Assembly: GCA_963739455.1 (NCBI GenBank)
Contig: CAVUAK010000001.1
Coordinates: 640,001 to 704,000, forward strand
Reading direction: 5' to 3'
Origin: an uncultured Gemmatimonadales bacterium
GTDB taxonomy: Bacteria > Gemmatimonadota > Gemmatimonadetes > Gemmatimonadales > GWC2-71-9
Length of the DNA stretch: 64,000 nt
Shown here piece after piece: positions 35,967 to 50,486 of this stretch; the first letter of the stretch is position 1, and the number at the start of each line of letters is the position of its first letter. The notes under the pieces were generated by a model. That model searched no databases. It was given only the letters and a program-made list of their open reading frames with translations, and was not told the origin of the DNA. A program made the position numbers and the translations under genes.

Positions 35967-35982
35967 GTCAATCGTCCCATGG

Positions 35983-36019
35983 CAGGGGGCCCGGTGCGCT
36001 GTGCGTGCCGGGCCCCCTG
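35983..36019 (+). terminator. Strong hairpin after pheA-aroF (terminator or REP-like)
   Basis: 17-bp stem with G-U pairs, 3-nt loop, no U tract. Confidence 0.5.
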
Positions 36020-36062
36020 GCGCGTCATAGCCCCAAGGCCGCAGCAGAAACCAGGGGGATGC

Positions 36063-38489
36063 ATGTCCCACCGCGCCACGACGGGAAGGCGGTTCACTTC
36101 CTTCCGCGTGATTGTCGCAATATTTGCGTTCGCGCTGCCCCTGCACGCCCAGGATGCGCCCTACCGTCCCGCACTCGCGTCGCTGCGAGCCGCCCTCGAC
36201 AGCGAGGGCACTCCCCTCGGAATTGATCGCATTGCCGCCCATTGGGATTCCACGGCGGCATCGCCAACCAGGCGCCTTGGCAAGGCCTACATCGAGTTAC
36301 GCCGCGGCATCGTCGAGAACGACAAGGGCATTCTTCAGTCCGCCTGGGACGGATTCGACCAAGTGGTCAACGTGCATCCGGATTGGCCCTACGCCGTCCT
36401 GGGGCTCGCGATTTCGGCCCTCGAGATCGATATGCGCGGGTACAAGGTGCCCGGCATCTACGACGGGAGCCCCGGCCTCACGCACTACGAGGGAGCGGCG
36501 AAGCAGTTTGCGCGGCTCCTCGCCGAGGAACCCGATTTCCAGCCGGCGCTGGATTGGATCGCGAGCAGCCTGCTGACCGACGAAGGGGATCGGCTGCAGC
36601 CAGAGGCGTTCATGCAGGCGCTGGGCAAGGCGATCGACAAGGATTCATCCGCCGACCCCCGGCTCCAGCTCATGGTGGCGCGATCCCTCCGGCAGCAGGG
36701 GAATGGGCCTGAGTCAGTGCGACGCATTGAACTGTACCTGCGCCAGGGCGGAGACAGTGGCGTCGGCGAGTTCGAGCTGGCCCGGTCGCTCGCCAGCATG
36801 GATTCGCTGGCCCAGGGCGCGCGGGCGTACCTGGCAGGCGCGCAAGTCAGGACCTCGCCCACGCGTGCCATCTACCGGCTGGATCTCTCCTGGGTGGCCG
36901 CACCTCTCGAACTTGCCATTTTCGACAGCCTGCCCGCCGATTCCGTGGGCGCGTACGTGGCCCGGTTCTGGGACCAGCGTGACGCGCGCGAGTTCCGGGA
37001 CCCGGGGAGCAGGCTGCAGGAACACCTGCGTCGCTGGGCGTACATCAACCAGCACTTTCGGATCGCCGATCCCGGCGCGGTATCGGTGATGCAAAAGGTC
37101 CTGATTCCCAACCCGAACGAGAAGTGTGCGCTCGGGGGCACCATGACGATGGAAGACTACCAGTTCGTGCATCCCGCCTCGCCGACGGACTATCGGGCCG
37201 GCGAGAGGATCTTCGACCACCGTGCAGTCGTCTACATGCGACATGGCGAGCCGCTGTACAAGTTCGGTGGTGACACGCTCTCGCTGGCGGTCAATGCGAC
37301 GCAGCGGCAGGGTGGAGGCGGGAACCTCAGCGGGGGCGCGACGATGGACCAGTATGACCCGGTGATTGCACGAAACGGCGCGACCTCGATGGGCCTCGCC
37401 GAGATTCCGCTATCGCGCGTGACGCAGCCCTTCCTCGATCGCAACGTCACCTGGGTGTACATGATGGAAGGGCAGCTGCGGGCCTTCACCTTCATGGGCC
37501 ACGTTGCGCTGGGCACGGCGCATCCCACGACCTTGATCGTCTACATGCCGCCAAACCTGGACGTGCTTCTCCGGCTTTCGCAGGTCAGTTCGTCCTATGC
37601 CCAGCTCGCCGGCATGACGCAGTCGTACCAGGCCACCGGCGGTGGAATGATTCCCTTGACCTGCCAGCCAGAGTATCGCGACGTCGTGGCGGAGCAGCAG
37701 CATGGCGCCGATGTCGCGCTGCACACCGACAGCTACCTGGAGCTGTTTGCGCATCCGATCGGCGCGTCGATCCAGCTCGCAGCAGTGGGACAGCCGGCGC
37801 TCGGCACGGGCGAGCTCGTCGCTGCCATCGGGTTGCGTGTTCAGGATCTTCAGGAGGTCGAGGGGGTGGGCGACGCGAGCCGGGCGGCATACGCCGTACG
37901 CGTACGCATCGCGGCCATCGACAGCGTGACGGGTGAGGTGGCAAGGACTGACACGGTGCGGCGGTTTGCGGCTCCCAGAGCTGACAGCGGCTGGCTGCCG
38001 TTCATCGTGACGCTTCCGATCAGGAAGGGCTTCAAGGAGGTGCGGGTATCGCTGCAACAGGGGGACGATCGTGGCGCCACCCTGGCTTCCACCATCCAGC
38101 CCGCCGGCGCGGCATTCGCCGCAAGCGACCTGGTCCTGGGCGCCGAGGCGGGAGCGGCATCCTGGCGTCGCGATGGGGGCGTGGTACCGATGACCCCGTT
38201 CAGCACCTATCCCACGAGCGGTGCGGTGCTCATCTACCAGGAGCTGTACGGCCTCAAGCCCGGCGCGAAGTACCGCACGATGATCTCGCTGCGGAAGGCG
38301 GGGGACCCGAAGGCCAAGAGCGCCATTTCCTTCGAGGATGGTGCTTCCGGATCGACCATGGCGTCTTCTCGTCGACTGACGCTCGACCAGGTGAAGCCGG
38401 GAACGTATGACCTTGTGGTGGAGGTGCAGGAGCAGTCGACCGGCCGGAGCCTGCGGCGCACCCGCACCATCACGGTCACGGCGCACTAG
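36063..38489 (+). CDS. Secreted GWxTD-like domain protein, paralog 3 (intact)
   Basis: Signal peptide LHA-QDAPYR; FWDQRD, RLQEHLRRW, DHRAVVYMRHGEP; C-terminal Ig-like beta domains. Confidence 0.8.
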   Translation: MSHRATTGRRFTSFRVIVAIFAFALPLHAQDAPYRPALASLRAALDSEGTPLGIDRIAAHWDSTAASPTRRLGKAYIELRRGIVENDKGILQSAWDGFDQVVNVHPDWPYAVLGLAISALEIDMRGYKVPGIYDGSPGLTHYEGAAKQFARLLAEEPDFQPALDWIASSLLTDEGDRLQPEAFMQALGKAIDKDSSADPRLQLMVARSLRQQGNGPESVRRIELYLRQGGDSGVGEFELARSLASMDSLAQGARAYLAGAQVRTSPTRAIYRLDLSWVAAPLELAIFDSLPADSVGAYVARFWDQRDAREFRDPGSRLQEHLRRWAYINQHFRIADPGAVSVMQKVLIPNPNEKCALGGTMTMEDYQFVHPASPTDYRAGERIFDHRAVVYMRHGEPLYKFGGDTLSLAVNATQRQGGGGNLSGGATMDQYDPVIARNGATSMGLAEIPLSRVTQPFLDRNVTWVYMMEGQLRAFTFMGHVALGTAHPTTLIVYMPPNLDVLLRLSQVSSSYAQLAGMTQSYQATGGGMIPLTCQPEYRDVVAEQQHGADVALHTDSYLELFAHPIGASIQLAAVGQPALGTGELVAAIGLRVQDLQEVEGVGDASRAAYAVRVRIAAIDSVTGEVARTDTVRRFAAPRADSGWLPFIVTLPIRKGFKEVRVSLQQGDDRGATLASTIQPAGAAFAASDLVLGAEAGAASWRRDGGVVPMTPFSTYPTSGAVLIYQELYGLKPGAKYRTMISLRKAGDPKAKSAISFEDGASGSTMASSRRLTLDQVKPGTYDLVVEVQEQSTGRSLRRTRTITVTAH

Positions 38490-38546
38490 CTCGCCGCTGT
38501 GTGCGGGCCCGCTCGTGTCGCGCGTCCTCCTTGATCATTCCATGAT

Positions 38547-41084
38547 ATGGTCGAGGGCCGGATGCGCGAGCAGCACATGCGCAGGGCGAGCTATTTCCTG
38601 CTGACACTGGCATGTGGCGCATTGTGCCCCGCAGGGGCGCAGGCCCAGGACGCGCCTTATCGCCCCGCTCTGGCCCAGCTTCGCGCCGCACTCGACAGTA
38701 CACGGAGCGAACTCGACGTCGATCGTGTCGCCGCCGAGTGGGCCGTCGCGGGAAACGGCCCGACCCGCCGTCTCGGTCAGGCCTACATCCAGTTGCGAAG
38801 AGGAACGCTCGACCAGGAGCGCACCACGCTGGTTGCGGCGTGGGACGAGTTCGAGCAGGTGGTAACGGGTCATCCCGACTGGCCATATGCCCGTTTCGGG
38901 CTGGCGATGGCAGGGTTCCAGTTGTACAACCGGCACTACTCCGCGCCGGCCCTGTACGATGGCATGGCTGGCGGCACTCACTACGATGGCGTCGCGATCC
39001 AGCTGAGCCGGATGCTTCAGGACGAGCCCGGCTTTCAGCCCGGCGTGGACTGGGTTGCTTCCACGCTCGCGAGCGAGGGCGATCGTGCGCAGCGAGCCCC
39101 GGTGGTCGCAGTCCTGCGCTTCATCGCCGACTCGACGGCATCCACCAATCCCGGCATCCAGCTGATCCTCGCGCGCGCAGACCGTCTCGACGGCGATACG
39201 CAGCGATCGCTCGACCGGATCGACTCCTACCTGCGCGAGGGTGGTGATTCGGGGATAGCGGCGCTTGAGCGCGCGCGCTCGCTCGCCGCCCTGGACTCGC
39301 TCTCCTCCGCTGCCAGCAGCTACATGTCCGGCACCGCCATCCAGACTGCCGCGGCACGCGACATCTACCGACTCGACCTGTCGTGGGTCGCAACGGAGCT
39401 GGAGCTCAGCCAGTACGATCGTCTTGCCGCCGATTCTGTCACGGTGTTCGTGCAGCGGTTCTGGGCAAAGCGCGACGCGCGCGAGCTTCGTCCCGCTGGC
39501 AGCAGGCTTCAGGAACACCTGCGCCGGTGGGTGTATGTCAGCCAGAATTTCCGGGTGGATGATCCCGGGCGGCGTACCATGCTGAGCCAGGTACGCATCC
39601 CGAACCCGAATGAATCATGCGCGAGCGGGAAGCGCACGCTGGATGACTACAGCTATGTCGAGCCCACATTCCACGACTATCGAAGCCCGGAGCGTGTCTT
39701 CGATCATCGCGCGACGGTTTATATGCGACACGGCGAACCGCTCTACCAGTTCAGTGGCGACACGACGTCGACAGCGCTGATCGCCACCACTCGCGGCAAC
39801 ACGCGGACGAATGGTTACGACGAGGCCTTCTCTCGCGTTGCACAGCCGGGAATGGCCGCGAGCTCGGATCCCATCGCGGCGATCGCAAGCCAGTATCCGG
39901 GCGCAGGGACAACCAGTCCGGCCAGCGCGTTCAGGGCAACACAGTCGCAGAACAGAGTCATGAACACCCCGACAACAGACCCCCGCGTGCCAACCGCGCC
40001 GTATACCGCCGCCTATGCCGATCGCAACGTGACCTGGGTCTACAACCTCGGTGGCCAGATCCGTGCGTTCACCTTCCAGGGGCACGAAGCGCTGGGCACA
40101 AGTCATCCGTCCACGCTGATCGTGGGTCGGGCACCCAACCTCGACGTGCTCCTGCAGGTCGGCTCGTACTCCGAGTCGTACATCAAGCTGGCCAACGCCG
40201 TCGAACAGCGCCTGTTGCATGACAACATGATCCCGCTGAGTTGTACCCGGGCATACCGTGATGTCATTCGAGAGCAGCAGGAGGGAGCGGCCGTGGCGGT
40301 GCGCACCGACAGTTACGAGCGCCGCTTCAAGAAGCCGATATCCTCGATGATCCAGGTTGCCGCGATGGGTCAGCCCTCATCCGGCACCGGTGAGGTGCTG
40401 GTGGCCGTGGGCGTCAAGATGAATGAACTCGAGGAGGTGGCCGGAACGAGCAATGGTGGAAAGGCGGGTTACATAGTCCGGGTGGAGCTGGCTGCGATTG
40501 ACAGCATCCGCGGCGAGGTGATCTCCGTGGACACGGTTCGTCGTTTCCTGGCTCGGCGCGAACAGTCGGGCTGGCTGTCATTCGTCACGACAATGCCACT
40601 GCGCCCCGGGCTGGCCGAGTTCCACATGTCGGTGTCACAGGGCGATGAGCGGGGAGTCGTGCAGGCCGTCATACTCGATCCTGCGTCGGGGGGATTCTCG
40701 GCGAGCGACATCGTACTCGGAACGGCCTCCGGCCCCGCGTCCTGGCTGCGCGATGGGGCGACGGTCTCGGTGAACCCCTACAATGCCTACCGCACCGACG
40801 ATGCATTGAGCATGTACCAGGAGCTCTATGGACTGACGCCGGGAATGACCTATCGCACGATGGTGTCGCTCCGGGAGGTCAAGAAGGGAAAGAAGGCGAA
40901 GGGAATGAAGGTGGCGCTCAACTTCGAGGAGACAGCCGCCACCCCGACACTTGCCACATCAAGGGAGCTGGCGCTCGACAACGTAAAGCCGGGGCTCTAC
41001 GACCTGCTCATTGATGTGGAGGAGGTGTCCACCGGCCGCACCGTACACCGCGAGCGCTCGATCGCGGTGTACGCCAAGCCATAG
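38547..41084 (+). CDS. Secreted GWxTD-like domain protein, paralog 4 (intact)
   Basis: AQA-QDAPYR; FWAKRD, RLQEHLRRW, DHRATVYMRHGEP; start could be 38562 or 38577. Confidence 0.8.
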   Translation: MVEGRMREQHMRRASYFLLTLACGALCPAGAQAQDAPYRPALAQLRAALDSTRSELDVDRVAAEWAVAGNGPTRRLGQAYIQLRRGTLDQERTTLVAAWDEFEQVVTGHPDWPYARFGLAMAGFQLYNRHYSAPALYDGMAGGTHYDGVAIQLSRMLQDEPGFQPGVDWVASTLASEGDRAQRAPVVAVLRFIADSTASTNPGIQLILARADRLDGDTQRSLDRIDSYLREGGDSGIAALERARSLAALDSLSSAASSYMSGTAIQTAAARDIYRLDLSWVATELELSQYDRLAADSVTVFVQRFWAKRDARELRPAGSRLQEHLRRWVYVSQNFRVDDPGRRTMLSQVRIPNPNESCASGKRTLDDYSYVEPTFHDYRSPERVFDHRATVYMRHGEPLYQFSGDTTSTALIATTRGNTRTNGYDEAFSRVAQPGMAASSDPIAAIASQYPGAGTTSPASAFRATQSQNRVMNTPTTDPRVPTAPYTAAYADRNVTWVYNLGGQIRAFTFQGHEALGTSHPSTLIVGRAPNLDVLLQVGSYSESYIKLANAVEQRLLHDNMIPLSCTRAYRDVIREQQEGAAVAVRTDSYERRFKKPISSMIQVAAMGQPSSGTGEVLVAVGVKMNELEEVAGTSNGGKAGYIVRVELAAIDSIRGEVISVDTVRRFLARREQSGWLSFVTTMPLRPGLAEFHMSVSQGDERGVVQAVILDPASGGFSASDIVLGTASGPASWLRDGATVSVNPYNAYRTDDALSMYQELYGLTPGMTYRTMVSLREVKKGKKAKGMKVALNFEETAATPTLATSRELALDNVKPGLYDLLIDVEEVSTGRTVHRERSIAVYAKP

Positions 41085-42731: not shown

Positions 42732-43282
42732 CCGAACGCCTCCTCTCCCAGCCAGACCCGCAAGCGCGTATGCGCGCGGGCGAGCTGGGACTTCGAAAAA
42801 CTTGCGGTCTTCCCCATCATCGCGGCGATTTCTTCGTGGGTGTATCCCTCGACATCGTGCAGCCACACCACCGCGCGCGACGTCTCACCCAGCCGCTCGA
42901 GCGCCGCTTCGAGATCCATGCGAAGCGCGGTGTCCTCGCGCTTGTGCTCCATCACGTCATCGTGCAGCTCATCGGCGTCGCGATACTTGTTCCGCCGGAG
43001 GCGCATGAGCGCCTTGCTCGCCGCGATCGTCCTGACCCATCCCCAGAGGCTGCCGTCCTGGCGATACCGCCCGATACTGCGGCAGACCTCGAAGAAGGTC
43101 TCCTGCAGCACGTCCTCAGCGTCCTCGGTGGTGCGGCAGATCCGGCGGGCGAGGTTGTACACGGGGACCTCGAAGGCTCGATAGAGAGCCTCGAGGGCAG
43201 CCGCATCACCCTGGCGGGCCTGGGCCACCACCGATTCGGCATTGGCGATCGGGTACAAGTCCATTGGCAGCGCTCTGGTCAT
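42728..43282 (-). CDS. ECF RNA polymerase sigma factor
   Basis: DAEDVLQETF, GWVRTIA, HDVEGYTHEEIA. Confidence 0.92.
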   Translation of the reverse strand: MTRALPMDLYPIANAESVVAQARQGDAAALEALYRAFEVPVYNLARRICRTTEDAEDVLQETFFEVCRSIGRYRQDGSLWGWVRTIAASKALMRLRRNKYRDADELHDDVMEHKREDTALRMDLEAALERLGETSRAVVWLHDVEGYTHEEIAAMMGKTASFSKSQLARAHTRLRVWLGEEAFG

Positions 43283-43293
43283 GGCACAGGTAA

Positions 43294-43321
43294 AGATGCC
43301 GGAGGGGGGAGGAGGGTTGCA
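43294..43321 (-). promoter_or_regulatory. Candidate autoregulatory ECF promoter
   Basis: TGCAAC-N17-CATCT on the minus strand just upstream of the sigma gene. Confidence 0.4.
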
Positions 43322-43375
43322 GGGAGGGCGGGGAGGGCGGGGAGGGCGGGGAGGGCGGGGAGGGCGGGGAGGGCG
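43322..43375. repeat. Perfect 9-bp tandem repeat (GGGAGGGCG)x6
   Basis: Directly visible in the divergent intergenic region. Confidence 0.95.
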
Positions 43376-44563: not shown

Positions 44564-46495
44564 GTGGACTCACCCGGCGCGATCACCCTTCCGCCGCGGT
44601 TCCGGCTCGATCGCGAGATCGGGCGCGGCGGCATGGCAGTCGTTTATCGCGCGCACGACCACCACCTCGACCGTTTCGTCGCCATCAAGGTGCTGTCCGC
44701 CGACTGGTCGCGCGGGGTCGGGAGTGATCGCTTCCAGCGCGAGATCGGGTTGATGGCCCGACTGGTTCATCCCGGCATCGTGGCACTGTTCGATTCCGGC
44801 GAAGTGGATGGACGGCTCTTCTATGTCATGCCGTTCGTCGCAGGCGAGACCCTCCGCGATCGCCTGACCCGCACCGGCCGCATGCCTGTCGAGGAGGCCG
44901 CAGCGCTCGGTGCAGACATCGCCGAGGCACTCGCCTATGCACACGGCCTTGGCATCGTGCACCGGGACGTCAAGCCGGAGAACATCTTCTCGGTCAGCGG
45001 GCGCGCCGTGCTGGCTGACTTCGGCATCGCCCGCGTCAACGACCAGGCTGATCGAAGTGCCCTGACAACGGCGGGAGTCGTCGTGGGGACGCTGTCGTAC
45101 ATGAGCCCGGAACAGGCATCGGCCGATGCGGGCCTGGACGGTCGCTCGGACCTCTATAGCCTGGGCTGTGTGCTCTATGAGTTGCTGACGGGCCGGGCGC
45201 CATTCGTTGCGACCACGCCCCTCGCCATCATGGCGAAGCACATGACGGAGACACCGCGTCCCCCCGGCACGCAGGGCGTGGAAGTGCCTGCCGCAATGGA
45301 TGCGATCATCATGCAACTGCTCGCCAAGGACGCTGGTGAGCGACCGAGACATGCCGGTGACGTGGCGCTGGCCCTGCGCGCGATGGCACAGCGACCCACC
45401 GCCGTCTCACCTCCGACCCCGGCGCCCGAACACTCTCCTGTACCGCGAAGCGATAGCGGGGCCAGCGCGGCGAGCGAGGTGAACCGCCTCATTGCCGAGG
45501 GGAAGCGGGCGTTCCGGTTGTATAGCCCCGGAGAGGGGGCCAAGGCGCGGACACGTCTCGATGAGGCGAAGACCTACCTGGACCGCGCGCTCGCACTGGA
45601 TCCCCGGAACGCACACGGTCTCTCCATGATGGGCAACTGGCACTTCGTGGCCGGCATCAGCGGAATCATGGATCGCGAGGAGGCCTTTGCACGGGGACGC
45701 GAGCTCATCATGGCGGCGCTCGCCGCCGATGACCAGGTCGCCGAAGTGCAGTGTTCCATGGCCAAGCTTGCGCTCTACTATGACGACGATTTCCACGCCG
45801 CCGCGCGCCACGTGGAGCGCGCCATCCAGCTGGACCCATTCGACCGCGAGGCACTGCGGCTGCAGAGCATCGTGTTCAAGATCCTGGGTCGCACCGATGA
45901 CGCGGTGCGCGCCGCCCAGGCCGCGACCGAGCGAGCACCCCGGGAGCCGGTGACGTGGAATTCACTGGGCGATGCGCTGCTGGCGGCCGGCCGGAATGCC
46001 GAGGCGGTCGATGCCCTGAAGCGGGCCATCAGCCTGCAGTCCGGGTACGGCCCCGCCCTCGAGCGCCTCGAGATCGCCCGCGGGCGACTCGGGGAGCATG
46101 AACTTGCGCTCGAGATCCGGAGTTCACGAATTCGCCTTTCGGGCGATCGCGAGCGTGCTGACCTGCTGGACCGCGAGGGGCTGGAGGCGGGCGCGGCAAC
46201 CGCGCTGCAACGCGACCTGCGCCGCGAGCTGAGCGCCCTGCTCTCGGAGGCGGCGCGAACGGACGCATTCGCAGAGTATTTCACCACCCGGACGACCGCC
46301 GACCGAATCGTCATGGTCTGTATCGAACTGGGTGATTGGCAGACCGCGATGGACTGGGTGGAACAGTCCTACCAGCGACGACCGGGACGGCTCCGGCGGC
46401 TGCTCACCGAGCTTCCCTTCGATCGCCGTGCGCTCGCCGTCGACCCACGGTATGCTCGCCTGCTTCGCGTGGCCGGCCTGGAAGAGCTGATCTGA
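44564..46495 (+). CDS. Ser/Thr protein kinase with TPR repeats
   Basis: GRGGMA, VAIK, HRDVKPEN, DFG, YMSPEQ, DLYSLG; C-terminal TPRs. Confidence 0.9.
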   Translation: MDSPGAITLPPRFRLDREIGRGGMAVVYRAHDHHLDRFVAIKVLSADWSRGVGSDRFQREIGLMARLVHPGIVALFDSGEVDGRLFYVMPFVAGETLRDRLTRTGRMPVEEAAALGADIAEALAYAHGLGIVHRDVKPENIFSVSGRAVLADFGIARVNDQADRSALTTAGVVVGTLSYMSPEQASADAGLDGRSDLYSLGCVLYELLTGRAPFVATTPLAIMAKHMTETPRPPGTQGVEVPAAMDAIIMQLLAKDAGERPRHAGDVALALRAMAQRPTAVSPPTPAPEHSPVPRSDSGASAASEVNRLIAEGKRAFRLYSPGEGAKARTRLDEAKTYLDRALALDPRNAHGLSMMGNWHFVAGISGIMDREEAFARGRELIMAALAADDQVAEVQCSMAKLALYYDDDFHAAARHVERAIQLDPFDREALRLQSIVFKILGRTDDAVRAAQAATERAPREPVTWNSLGDALLAAGRNAEAVDALKRAISLQSGYGPALERLEIARGRLGEHELALEIRSSRIRLSGDRERADLLDREGLEAGAATALQRDLRRELSALLSEAARTDAFAEYFTTRTTADRIVMVCIELGDWQTAMDWVEQSYQRRPGRLRRLLTELPFDRRALAVDPRYARLLRVAGLEELI

Positions 46496-46502
46496 CCCGC
46501 GC

Positions 46503-46531
46503 TTGACACCACCGCTGGTTTCGCGTATCTC
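46503..46531 (+). promoter_or_regulatory. Sigma70-type promoter of the sulfur operon
   Basis: TTGACA-N17-TATCTC. Confidence 0.6.
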
Positions 46532-46548
46532 TGGATACGACAATTGAT

Positions 46549-46600
46549 TCGTGGTCATTTGCCGCGTATTGCAGCCACGTTAAACAAATGCTAAAAAGCG
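46549..46600 (+). ncRNA. SAM-II (SAM_alpha-like) riboswitch aptamer
   Basis: P1 CGTGGT/GCCACG, ATTT loop, GTATTGCA, TTAAACAA, GCTAAAAA-GCG tail; matches the SAM-II pseudoknot pattern and precedes sulfur amino acid genes. Confidence 0.82.
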
Positions 46601-46603
46601 AGA

Positions 46604-46636
46604 CGTCCGCGCCTCGTTGCCGCGGGCGCTTTTTTT
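46604..46636 (+). terminator. Riboswitch expression-platform terminator
   Basis: CGTCCGCG/CGCGGGCG stem followed by C and T7. Confidence 0.7.
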
Positions 46637-46669
46637 CGTCGCCAGTTCCTGGGCGACAGGGATGCCTGC

Positions 46670-47933
46670 ATGACCGCAGCCGCTGTTTCTCCGAAGGTGC
46701 GTGCGCTTCCGCTCCGGTGCCGCAATTGTGGCGTGGAGACCGAGCCGGCGCCCAAGGCCATCTGCGAAGAGTGCCTGGGACCGCTCGAGCCACTCTATGA
46801 TCCTGCGCGGCACTTGCCGACGCGTGCCGAGATTGGCGCGCGGGCAGCGTCGCTCTGGCGCTACCACGAGTGGCTGCCGCTCGAGGGCACCCCGCCCTAC
46901 TCCCTCGATACCGGGTTCACCCCGCTGGTAGAAGTGCCCCGCCTGGCACCACTGCTCGGCGTGGCGCGGGTGTGGGTGAAGAACGACGCGGTGTCACACC
47001 CGAGCCTGTCGTTCAAGGATCGCGTCGTTGCCGCCGCGATCAATGCGGCCGCGGCGTTCGGCATCGATACCGTCGGCTGCGCCTCCACCGGCAACCTGGC
47101 CAATGCCGTCGCCGCGCAGGCTGCCCGCGCCGGGCTGCCTGCCTGGATCTTCATCCCCGACAACCTCGAGCTGGGCAAGGTCGTGGGTACCTCCGTGTAC
47201 GCACCGAACCTCGTGCGCATCCGGGGCACCTATGACGACGTGAACCGGCTCTGTGCCCAGGTGGCCGATCGCTATGGCTGGGGCATCGTCAACGTGAACC
47301 TGCGCTCGTACTACGGCGAGGGATCGAAGACGGTCGCGTTCGAGATCGCGGAACAGCTCGGCTGGCGCCTGCCGACCGCGGTCGTGGCGCCGATGGCAGG
47401 CGGGTCGCTGGTGTCGAAGCTGGGGAAGGGATTCCGCGAGTTCATCTCGCGCGGGACTGGTGAACGGCGAATCGCCGCGGCTCTACGGGGCGCAGGCCAC
47501 GGGGTGCGCGCCGATCGTGCGGCTGGTCGAGCGCGGCGATGGCCAGCTCATTCCCGAGATCCCGGACACGATTGCGCGCTCGATCGCCATCGGCAACCCG
47601 GCGGATGGCGCGTACGCCGCCGAGTCGATCCGGAAGTCAGGTGGCTGGGCGGCGAGCGTGAGCGATGCCGAACTGGTGAAGGGGATCAAGCTGCTCGCCG
47701 AGACGTCGGGGATCTTCACCGAGACGGCTGGTGGGGTGACACTCGCAAGTGCGCTCGAACTGGCGCGCACCGGTCACTTCCGCGCGGACGACGAGGTAGT
47801 GCTCTGCATTACGGGGAACGGCCTCAAGACGGTCGAGGCCCTGAGCGGTTCATTGGATGAGGCACCGGTGCTGGCACCCCGCCTCCGTGACGTCGCGGAT
47901 CTCGTGGCGCGCACGTCGCAGAATTCACGCTGA
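46670..47933 (+). CDS. Threonine synthase-like fold-type II PLP enzyme; frameshift near 47456
   Basis: CxxC...CxxC N-terminus, G.TPL, SFKDR (PLP Lys), ASTGN, EGSKT, ITGNGLK. Confidence 0.85.
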
Positions 47934-47946
47934 GGAGGGATTCATC

Positions 47947-48222
47947 ATGTCCGTAACGCTTTCCCTGCCCGCTGTCCTGACCCGCCTCACCGATGGTGCC
48001 CGTACGCTCGAGGCGACCGGGGCCACGGTGGGCGATGTGGTACAGGATGTGGCCGGCCGGTTTCCGCAGCTCGCGCCGCGCCTGCGCGACGAGCAGGGCA
48101 ACCCATACTCCTTCGTGACGTTCTACCTGAACGACGAGGACATTCGCTTCACCGGTGGCTTTGCCACCGTCGTGCGGGACGGCGATGAGCTGATCATCGT
48201 GCCCGCCATTGCAGGAGGCTGA
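47947..48222 (+). CDS. MoaD/ThiS/CysO family ubiquitin-like sulfur carrier
   Basis: [23 protein letters not shown]-terminal diglycine; GAGGAGG RBS. Confidence 0.92.
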
Positions 48223-48226
48223 CTCC

Positions 48227-49397
48227 ATGACCACATCAATTGCCGCGGAGCCGCTGCCCGAGCTGGGCAACGACGAGATCCTCCGCTACAGCCGCCACCT
48301 GATCCTGCCCGAGTTCGGGCTCGAGGCCCAGCGCAAGCTCAAGGCATCGAGCGTGCTCGTCGTCGGGAGCCGGCGGGCTCGGCTCGCCGCTGGGCCTCTA
48401 CCTGGCTGCCGCCGGTGTCGGCCGGCTTGGCATCGTGGACTTCGACGTCGTTGATGCCACCAACCTGCAGCGGCAGATCATTCACGGTACCGCTGACGTC
48501 GGTCGCCCGAAGCTCGACTCGGCGCGCGACCGCATCCAGGGGCTTAACCCGCACGTGGATGTGCAGACCTACGAGGGGCGCTTCACGTCGGCCAACGCGC
48601 TCGAGATTGCGCGCGACTACGACCTCGTCATCGACGGCACGGACAACTTCCCGACGCGCTACCTGGTGAACGACGCGTGCGTGCTGCTGGGCAAGCCCAA
48701 CGTGTATGGCAGCATTTTCCGCTTTGAGGGGCAGGCCTCCGTGCTCGCGACGGACAGCGGGCCTTGCTATCGCTGCCTGTTCCGTGAGCCGCCACCCCCG
48801 GGCATGGTGCCGAGCTGCGCTGAAGGCGGCGTGCTCGGCGTGCTGCCAGGGCTCATTGGCGTGATCCAGGCCACGGAGGCGATCAAGCTGCTCACCGGCA
48901 TCGGCGAGCCGCTCATCGGCCGGCTGCTCCTGGTGGACGCACTGCGCATGCAGTTCCGCACGCTGAAGTTGCACCGTGACCCACTGTGCCCCGCGTGCGG
49001 CACGCGCGAGATCCAGTCGCTGATCGACTACGAGCAGTTCTGCGGGTTGAACGACGTGGACAGCAGCGTGGATGCCACCATTCCGGAGCTGACACCGAAG
49101 CAGCTCGCCGCGCGCATCGAGCGGGGCGATGACTTCGACCTGATCGACGTCCGCGAGCCGCAGGAGTGGGCGATCGCCCAGCTTCCCGGCGCGCGGCTCA
49201 TTCCGCTGGGCACACTCCCCGCGGCGCTGGGTTCGCTGGACAGCGCTCGCGAGGTGGTGATCTACTGCAAGGGTGGTGTGCGGAGCCTTCGCGCGGCGAC
49301 GCAACTGCGCGCTGCCGGGTTCCGCAAGGTGTCGAACCTCACTGGCGGCATCCTGCGCTGGAGCAGCGATGTCGACCCCAGCGTGCCGACCTACTGA
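48227..49397 (+). CDS. moeB: MoeB/MoeZ adenylyltransferase-rhodanese fusion; frameshift near 48368
   Basis: RYSRH, GAGGLG (split by the shift), [22 protein letters not shown], rhodanese CKGGVRS. Confidence 0.9.
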
Positions 49398-49489
49398 TGA
49401 CGTACCTGCCGAGCATGCCCATGCCCTGTTGTTGTGACCGTTGCATGCGACGGTCGGGGCTGGGGCATGTCCGGTGGTCACCGCCATAG
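49397..49489 (+). CDS. Cys-rich leader peptide [30 protein letters not shown]
   Basis: TGATG-coupled to moeB; TGT TGT TGT GAC CGT TGC; followed by antiterminator and terminator. Confidence 0.78.
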   Translation: MTYLPSMPMPCCCDRCMRRSGLGHVRWSPP

Positions 49490-49519
49490 CGGCGCAACGA
49501 CCAGTGCATGCATCACCCC

Positions 49520-49551
49520 GACCCACCGACACCCGGTGGGTCTCTTTTTTT
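49520..49551 (+). terminator. Attenuator terminator upstream of the sulfurtransferase
   Basis: GACCCACCG-ACACC-CGGTGGGTC then TC and T7. Confidence 0.85.
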
Positions 49552-49586: not shown

Positions 49587-50486
49587 ATGACTGCCACTCG
49601 CCCCGCGCCAACCACCGCCACGGCCCCCATCGAGGAGCGTGGATATGCCCGCCCCGACGTGCTCGTGTCTACCACCTGGCTGGCTGACAACCTCGATGAC
49701 CCGAAGCTCCGCCTGCTGGAGAGCGATGAGGACGTGCTGCTCTATGACCTGGGGCACATTCGCGGCGCACAGAAGATCGACTGGCACGACGACCTGAATG
49801 ACCCGGTGGTTCGTGACTACATCAACGACGCGGGCTTCGAGCGCCTGCTTCGGCGGCTGGGCATCGACCAGACCACAACGGTGGTGCTCTACGGCGACCG
49901 GAACAACTGGTGGGCCACATATGCGTTCTGGGTGTTCCGGCTCTTTGGTTTTCCCGAGTCGCAGCTGCGCCTGCTCGACGGTGGGCGCGCCGCGTGGGAG
50001 GCAGAGGGCCGGCCCCTCGTCACCTCGCTCAAGTCCTTCACCGCAAGCCGGTATCGCGGTCCCAGGCGCGACGACAGCGGCATTCGCGCATTCCGGGAGG
50101 AAGTACTGGAGCATTCAGCGCGGGGCCGTCCACTGATCGACGTACGGTCGCCCGACGAGTTCACCGGCCGCAAGCTGCACCTGGTGGAGTATCCGCAGGA
50201 GGGAGTGCTGCGCGGCGGCCATGTGCCGGGGGCGAGCAACGTGCCGTGGGCGCGCGCGGCCAGCACCAACGGGACCTTCAAGGACGCTGAGACACTGCGT
50301 GACATCTACGAGGGCGAGGCCGGCCTCAGGAAGGGCGACAGTGTCATCACCTACTGCCGCATTGGCGAGCGGTCGAGCCATACCTGGTTCGTGCTGACGT
50401 ACTTGCTGGGCTATTCGAAGGTGCGGAACTACGACGGCAGCTGGACAGAGTGGGGCAACGCGGTAGGACTGCCGATCGAGAAGTAG
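49587..50486 (+). CDS. Tandem-domain rhodanese/thiosulfate sulfurtransferase (CysA2/SseA-like)
   Basis: [40 protein letters not shown]. Confidence 0.93.

Follow-up and report, generated by a model that had tools for sequence, protein, structure and literature searches.

The window analysed here, a stretch of 64,000 nucleotides from a Gemmatimonadales genome, contains a short leader followed by four genes on the same strand, the first of which is thrC-like. The features to which we refer are the following.

46503..46531, + strand: putative sigma70-type promoter (TTGACA, 17 nt, TATCTC; the -10 hexamer is without the sixth T)
46550..46600, + strand: SAM-II aptamer, with P1, the P2 pseudoknot and the AUUUG, UUGC and GCUAAA blocks (RF00521, 40.8 bits)
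46597..46618, + strand: predicted antiterminator hairpin (AGCGAG 46597-46602 with CUCGUU 46613-46618, plus 46604-46605 with 46610-46611)
46604..46636, + strand: intrinsic terminator (8-bp stem of 46604-46611 with 46621-46628, 9-nt loop, one C, U7 at 46630-46636)
46638..46657, + strand: second hairpin with a 6-bp stem and a variable loop, placed after the U-tract and ahead of the Shine-Dalgarno-like AGGGA (46658-46662), which it leaves uncovered
46670..47933, + strand: thrC-like PLP enzyme (probably a homocysteine synthase of the MetM type); one extra base near 47450, likely an assembly error, splits the gene
47947..48222, + strand: ThiS/MoaD-family sulfur carrier (MetO-like, PF02597), ending in IAGG
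48227..49397, + strand: MoeZ-like adenylyltransferase/rhodanese, also interrupted by a single additional base (near 48365, likely an assembly error)
49587..50486, + strand: two-domain rhodanese sulfurtransferase (PF00581)

The initial annotation of the leader had described a close fit to the SAM-II pattern, and an Rfam scan of the whole 64-kb window agrees, its sole match at gathering score being RF00521 (SAM_alpha) at 46541-46613 with 40.8 bits (GA 36, E 9.3e-6). The sequence quoted in that annotation is present and the first base of the aptamer is 46550. P1 has 6 bp (46550-46555 with 46574-46579) and P2 is an H-type pseudoknot in which the P1 loop pairs with the 3' tail (46563-46572 with 46590-46600). 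In 48 relatives picked for diversity out of 84 copies, 94.5% of the P1 and P2 cells are paired, compared to 29-50% for slid controls. P1 is paired in 99.7% of its cells, with 4 of its 6 pairs invariant, and the 8 pairs of P2 in 90.6%, where 13 of the 48 are unpaired at the last pair in the register used. Two-sided changes in P2 occur in 19 cells (0 of 500 shuffles), of which the last P2a pair accounts for 18. The AUUUG, UUGC and GCUAAA blocks, which have a role in the binding pocket of the 2QWY structure, agree with the Rfam consensus; U10, U11, UUGC and GCUAAA are invariant in the 48 relatives, which were themselves collected by a pattern holding these blocks. The SAM-V model (RF01826), the other comparison that had been suggested, has no match in the window or in the genome, and the control genomes gave none either; the P1 of this copy has 6 bp, whereas SAM-V is recognised by a 4-bp P1, a P3 helix and a Shine-Dalgarno sequence in its tail. 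SAM-I has no match in the host genome. Folding energy by itself is without significance, with z of -0.5 to -1.4 for five leader fragments starting at 46545 or later and +0.28 for 46495-46640. By its covariance model the leader is a SAM-II aptamer, and SAM binding is predicted for it.

The layout around the aptamer is that of a transcription unit with an early terminator. The two promoter hexamers and their 17-nt spacing recur, with a varying spacer sequence, in all seven copies from the genus that were inspected, among them that of the window. A stricter promoter pattern is found at 46 of 95 SAM-II copies when 0.53 are expected, and 45 of these 46 end 17-22 nt before P1. A consensus promoter scan did not call the 46503-46531 site and picked up only a weak inner hairpin. 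From the position of the promoter we infer that transcription starts near 46538. Downstream, the hairpin and T7 expected after the aptamer are there, as an 8-bp stem with an energy of -13.3 kcal/mol, one C and T7 at 46630-46636, and the ATG, at 46670, is indeed 70 nt past the aptamer. Behind the Gemmatimonadota SAM-II copies a hairpin at or below -10 with 5 or more U in 9 is found in 64 of 95 cases and at only 2 of 285 downstream control positions. The figure of 64 is probably an undercount, since the first two terminator finders either misjudged where the aptamer ends, in several rows, or absorbed the U-tract; a looser rule makes 89 of the 95 positive, a rate that has no matched control. The stem of the second hairpin is retained despite loop changes in five relatives (L041, L042, L045, L049 and L059). 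Among sequencing runs, at most 12% of the words were found, and the four runs inspected were contigs of relatives, which carry no information about where the RNA starts or ends or about termination.

A few SAM-II copies of the metH type (L012, L004 and L033) are without a hairpin and U-tract, and in L012 the metH homology begins about 50 nt past the aptamer. These terminator-less copies may be translational variants.

Two complementarities between aptamer and terminator had been proposed to make up the switch, and both lie where they were placed: AAAAAGCG at 46593-46600 with CGCTTTTT at 46627-46634, and GCGAG at 46598-46602 with CTCGT at 46613-46617. Their comparative support differs. The pairing tests used 84 unique copies with a terminator, 6 terminator-less copies and 5 duplicates having been dropped from the 95. 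For the aptamer tail with the terminator loop the duplex energy is -8.67 in cognate pairs, -7.50 with permuted partners (0 of 5000) and -5.59 in shuffled sequence (0 of 100), and among 36 representatives below 75% identity 4 of 5000 permutations do as well. For the tail with the U-tract the cognate and permuted values are both -6.67 (2461 of 5000 in the 84 copies, 987 of 5000 among representatives). The latter pairing thus reflects composition and not partnership, as expected whenever an A-tract is set opposite a U-tract. A third pairing, of L1 with the 5' arm of the terminator, is also partner-specific (1 of 5000 in the 84 copies, 0 of 5000 in representatives). It shows compensatory change, with GCCGCG opposite CGCGGC 12 times, GCCGCC opposite GGYGGC 9 times and 2 crossed cases; among representatives the two combinations stand at 6 to 4 with none crossed.

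When the 84 copies are sorted by thresholds that were fixed after the energies were seen, 37 have the tail-loop pairing, 23 the L1-arm pairing, none both and 24 neither. Some complementarity between aptamer and terminator is therefore present in 60 of 84 copies compared to 30.7 on permutation (maximum 41), and such permutation counts overstate the case because kin are not independent. A test on whole folds puts 25 of 84 copies at z<-1.64, with the cognate better than the swap mean in 43 of 84. The GCGAG/CTCGT half of the proposed switch is thus the local case of a partner-specific pattern found across the phylum, while the U-tract half shows no partner specificity.

These classes lead us to a testable proposal, which we regard as the most useful addition of this work. 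The Gemmatimonadota SAM-II elements would reveal the wiring of transcriptional SAM-II switches, and would come in two mutually exclusive forms, type A, in which the tail pairs with the terminator loop, and type B, in which the L1/P2a 5' strand pairs with the terminator 5' arm; the window's genus, with its type B match lost and a minimal type A hairpin, may record a rewiring. We would put the chances of this whole scheme at about even. By threshold the window copy belongs to the 'neither' class. Its L1 still reads GCCGCG, and its 5' arm is without CGCGGC. All five same-genus copies examined, of which the window's is one, retain GCGAG and CUCGU, and the intervening sequence has changed in one of them (L039). 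TTGCCGCG occurs at both 46559 and 46617, as if the arm had once paired with both.

The predicted antiterminator of this copy is a modest structure. Its energy is -8.0 kcal/mol and becomes +0.3 when the aptamer bases are removed, and in nascent chains ending at 46618-46624 it has a probability of 0.83-0.98, which is lost by 46628. When the window copy is taken alone the hairpin is without significance (dG -5.0, z -1.3, 13% of shuffles equally good). The terminator is more stable by 5 kcal/mol and, as soon as 46628 is free, attains a probability of 1.0 in both states. With the antiterminator formed, the UCCG loop still offers an open toehold, and the outer 5' arm increases its pairing only from 0.28 to 0.40. 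Since the terminator prevails at equilibrium whether SAM is present or not, any control would have to be kinetic and would probably be leaky.

The observed aptamer match, terminator anatomy, complementarities and gene families are best put together as a transcriptional OFF switch for a predicted MetM/MetO homocysteine operon, and we consider this the likely function of the locus. The RNA would begin near 46538 and P1 would fold. At low SAM the pseudoknot tail would be loose, and CUCGUU in the terminator loop (46613-46618) could be captured by AGCGAG (46597-46602) while the 3' arm is still inside the polymerase; with the 5' arm partly tied up, the polymerase would read through. With SAM bound, P2 would hold GCUAAAAAGCG and the rival hairpin would lose all its stability, in which case the terminator would form and an RNA of about 100 nt would be released near 46636. 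The idea that a free tail disables the terminator and a SAM-locked pseudoknot permits it thus fits in its logic; what does not carry over is the pairing of tail and U-tract as the switch.

That pairing would have the free tail, AAAAAGCG, form the antiterminator with CGCUUUUU (46627-46634), which spans the terminator base and its U-tract. In the window it is a perfect 8 bp with a duplex energy of -9.9 kcal/mol, and together with an inner stem it reaches -14.3 compared to -13.3 for the bare terminator. The U-tract, though, sits in the RNA-DNA hybrid and is still inside the polymerase when termination is decided. In the full, finished RNA the helix has a probability of only 0.07, it retains 6 of the 8 terminator pairs, and in one relative (L059) the tail has changed from A to U with the U-tract unchanged. 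Along with the permutation counts given above, this leaves the tail and U-tract pairing very improbable as the switch. A similar predicted helix is apparently drawn for S. meliloti metZ in Fig. S1 of PMC9373788, as far as the scrambled text of that figure can be followed, and would give the idea a precedent at the level of prediction.

It is also possible, if unlikely, that the aptamer binds SAM while the terminator is largely constitutive, SAM then acting on translation, on RNA stability or through a released small RNA. The dominance of the terminator at equilibrium in both states and the weakness of the antiterminator fit such an arrangement, as does the second conserved hairpin, which abuts the Shine-Dalgarno sequence. 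There is precedent in S. meliloti metA, where the accessible text of PMC9373788 does not predict the terminator after the SAM-II aptamer to be SAM-gated. A further point against our main reading is that the part of PMC6061858 available to us argues that long P2a helices may form with or without SAM. Against a constitutive terminator stands the partner-specific complementarity in 60 of 84 relatives, and against translational action that the aptamer tail is without a Shine-Dalgarno-like run and that the second hairpin leaves AGGGA free. SAM-gated termination remains our preferred reading of the leader.

The genes behind the switch point to homocysteine synthesis. The thrC-like product has an intact 420-aa relative with about 90% identity to it; this relative is in turn 32% identical to the other ThrC of the genome, encoded in a separate thrA-thrB-thrC operon on contig C3. 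We looked at whether the breaks in the thrC-like and moeZ genes could make them pseudogenes and rejected this, as both breaks come down to a single additional base that six of six relatives do not have, and other genes in the assembly are also split. A ThiS/MoaD gene is near 63 of 80 homologous loci (22 of 24 close, 41 of 56 distant). By pattern search, SAM-II lies upstream of 20 of the 24 close loci and of no distant one (0 of 56). Of 14 non-Gemmatimonadota loci scanned, which were hand-picked from the 56 distant ones for long flanks and spread, 8 have SAM-I ahead of the homolog. The other SAM-II copy of the genome precedes metF-metH. From this analysis of gene content we infer that the operon encodes a MetM/MetO sulfur-carrier route to homocysteine.

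The closest model is the S. albulus MetM/MetO/MoeZ/Mec route (Hasebe et al. 2024, as described in the available text of PMC13759103 and PMC12172450), with which the operon has in common a ThrC-like enzyme beside a sulfur carrier, a MoeZ and an upstream SAM riboswitch. It differs in that its carrier ends in GG, in having no Mec over the cut-off and in having a rhodanese in the operon, and the likeness is one of gene content.

The riboswitch could be as described and the first gene still be an ordinary threonine synthase, or serve some sulfur product other than homocysteine. The intact relative passes TIGR00260 thrC with 231 bits (cut-off 167), the best solved relatives are threonine synthases, and a Microcystis MetM homolog acted mainly as ThrC/deaminase according to the accessible part of PMC12172450. 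The genome also carries a metY-metX pair, which offers the host another route, and a search for Mec gave one sub-threshold PF14464 match elsewhere (21.9 compared to 25 bits) in a genome that is 84% complete. The separate thr operon speaks against a threonine synthase, as does the presence of SAM riboswitches of two unrelated classes ahead of the homologs, and PMC13759103, in the passages available, notes that ThrC is a frequent misannotation of MetM. With a carrier that already ends in GG, Mec should be dispensable. We consider a first gene outside homocysteine synthesis quite unlikely.

Further candidate regulatory or metabolic features were noted. At 49397-49551 a 30-codon Cys/Met-rich mini-ORF starts at the moeZ stop; behind it, and ahead of the rhodanese gene, lie a terminator hairpin of -18.4 kcal/mol and a U-tract. 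This arrangement is likely a leader-peptide attenuator within the operon. The metY-metX leader (L164; G000:C1, about 2070850-2071000, minus strand) has no riboswitch match and holds a short Met/Cys-rich ORF and then a strong terminator; this is likely a second sulfur-amino-acid attenuator. In relatives, SAM-II operons (L084:4045-8795, L096, L094, L085, L100, L065) add to thrC-like, moaD and moeZ genes a PanB-family gene (PF02548), a homoserine kinase and sometimes a class I/II aminotransferase, and our guess is that these make homoserine from pyruvate and a one-carbon unit. Elsewhere in the window, two neighbouring paralogous ORFs of about 840 aa lie at 35979-41084, with what we take to be GWxTD-like features, and a low-complexity GGRGGR repeat at 43242-43330 opens a VIT1/rubrerythrin-like ORF, probably upstream of its true start.

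The initial annotation placed this element outside the usual hosts of SAM-II. That holds insofar as Gemmatimonadales lie outside Proteobacteria, but the host is not an unusual one, since SAM-II is found in 111 of 151 genomes drawn from Gemmatimonadota (105 over the cut-off), with a patchy distribution outside the host's order. Gemmatimonadota records account for 23 of the 24 homologs closest to the downstream gene. SAM-II is the main SAM riboswitch detected in Gemmatimonadales, with matches in 53 of 61 relatives compared to 3 of 61 for SAM-I, of which one is over the cut-off. In the titles and abstract openings on Gemmatimonad riboswitches and SAM-II we found no description of this, though tables or figures of PMC5473149 and PMC12452182 could list it, and the accessible text of PMC12667848 and PMC12452182 has nothing on SAM-II in Gemmatimonadota. 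SAM-II is common in this phylum and apparently undocumented in the searchable literature.

Some copies in this collection stand apart. Sub-threshold SAM-I matches occur in two SAM-II-bearing genomes (L161 in G032, L162 in G001), and another genome (G044, L160) has two SAM-I 1.2 kb apart and no SAM-II match; a 2007 survey, in the portion available, reports no species with both classes. SAM-II precedes one common ORF outside the query set in L048 and L072, another gene outside that set in L052 and, as a divergent aptamer, an ORF in L077 that is metK-like as judged by eye.

None of these findings amounts to a new kind of system. The value of the locus lies elsewhere, in that the many diverged Gemmatimonadota copies offer ready mutation pairs for testing SAM gating of the terminator and that a 'threonine synthase' annotation is flagged as a likely methionine gene. 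The well-studied SAM-II example is translational though the class is described as mostly transcriptional, and reviews, in the sections available, describe the control mechanism as not established. The premise that SAM-II usually occludes the ribosome binding site, on which the initial annotation relied, was not supported. Three papers tie SAM-II mostly or often to terminators. Most SAM-II are transcriptional according to the available text of Huang and Lilley (PMC6061858), terminators are reported in many representatives in that of Corbino et al. 2005 (PMC1273637), and tandem SAM-II/SAM-V cases always have a terminator in that of PMC9481103. The occlusion picture derives from the env metX model RNA, going by the passages of PMC10907184 available to us.

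Comparison with known systems, each as represented in the accessible parts of the papers cited, places the leader in the window close to several of them. With the metA motif SAM-II (RF00521, PMC1273637) it has in common the 6-bp P1, the H-type pseudoknot, the core blocks, a promoter just upstream, an intrinsic terminator before the ORF and a methionine-pathway target, predicted in our case. It differs in its host phylum, which the searchable papers do not name for this motif, and in having a thrC-like/sulfur-carrier operon in place of metA, metX, metY, metZ or hom. S. meliloti metZ (PMC9373788) has near-identical aptamer blocks, a terminator after the aptamer and an expected terminated RNA of about 100 nt, and an RNA of about this size has been seen. 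In its published SAM-free fold the partner of the tail is seemingly the 3' arm with the U-tract (from scrambled figure text), whereas comparative support here favors the terminator loop or, in relatives, the 5' arm. The beta-proteobacterial metXZ element (PMC4239095; SAM-II per PMC5473149) is likewise a SAM-II with a terminator, for which Leyn et al. speculated that GC-rich aptamer regions pair with the terminator stem (PMC4239095), in passages that give no covariation counts. The env metX SAM-II (PDB 2QWY) and SAM-V (RF01826) have the same pseudoknot fold and binding core; they are translational, with a short P2a that holds the Shine-Dalgarno sequence, whereas the window has its ATG 70 nt away and no SAM-V match. 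The design is thus already known, and what this locus adds to it is confined to a new host, other target genes and a predicted wiring.
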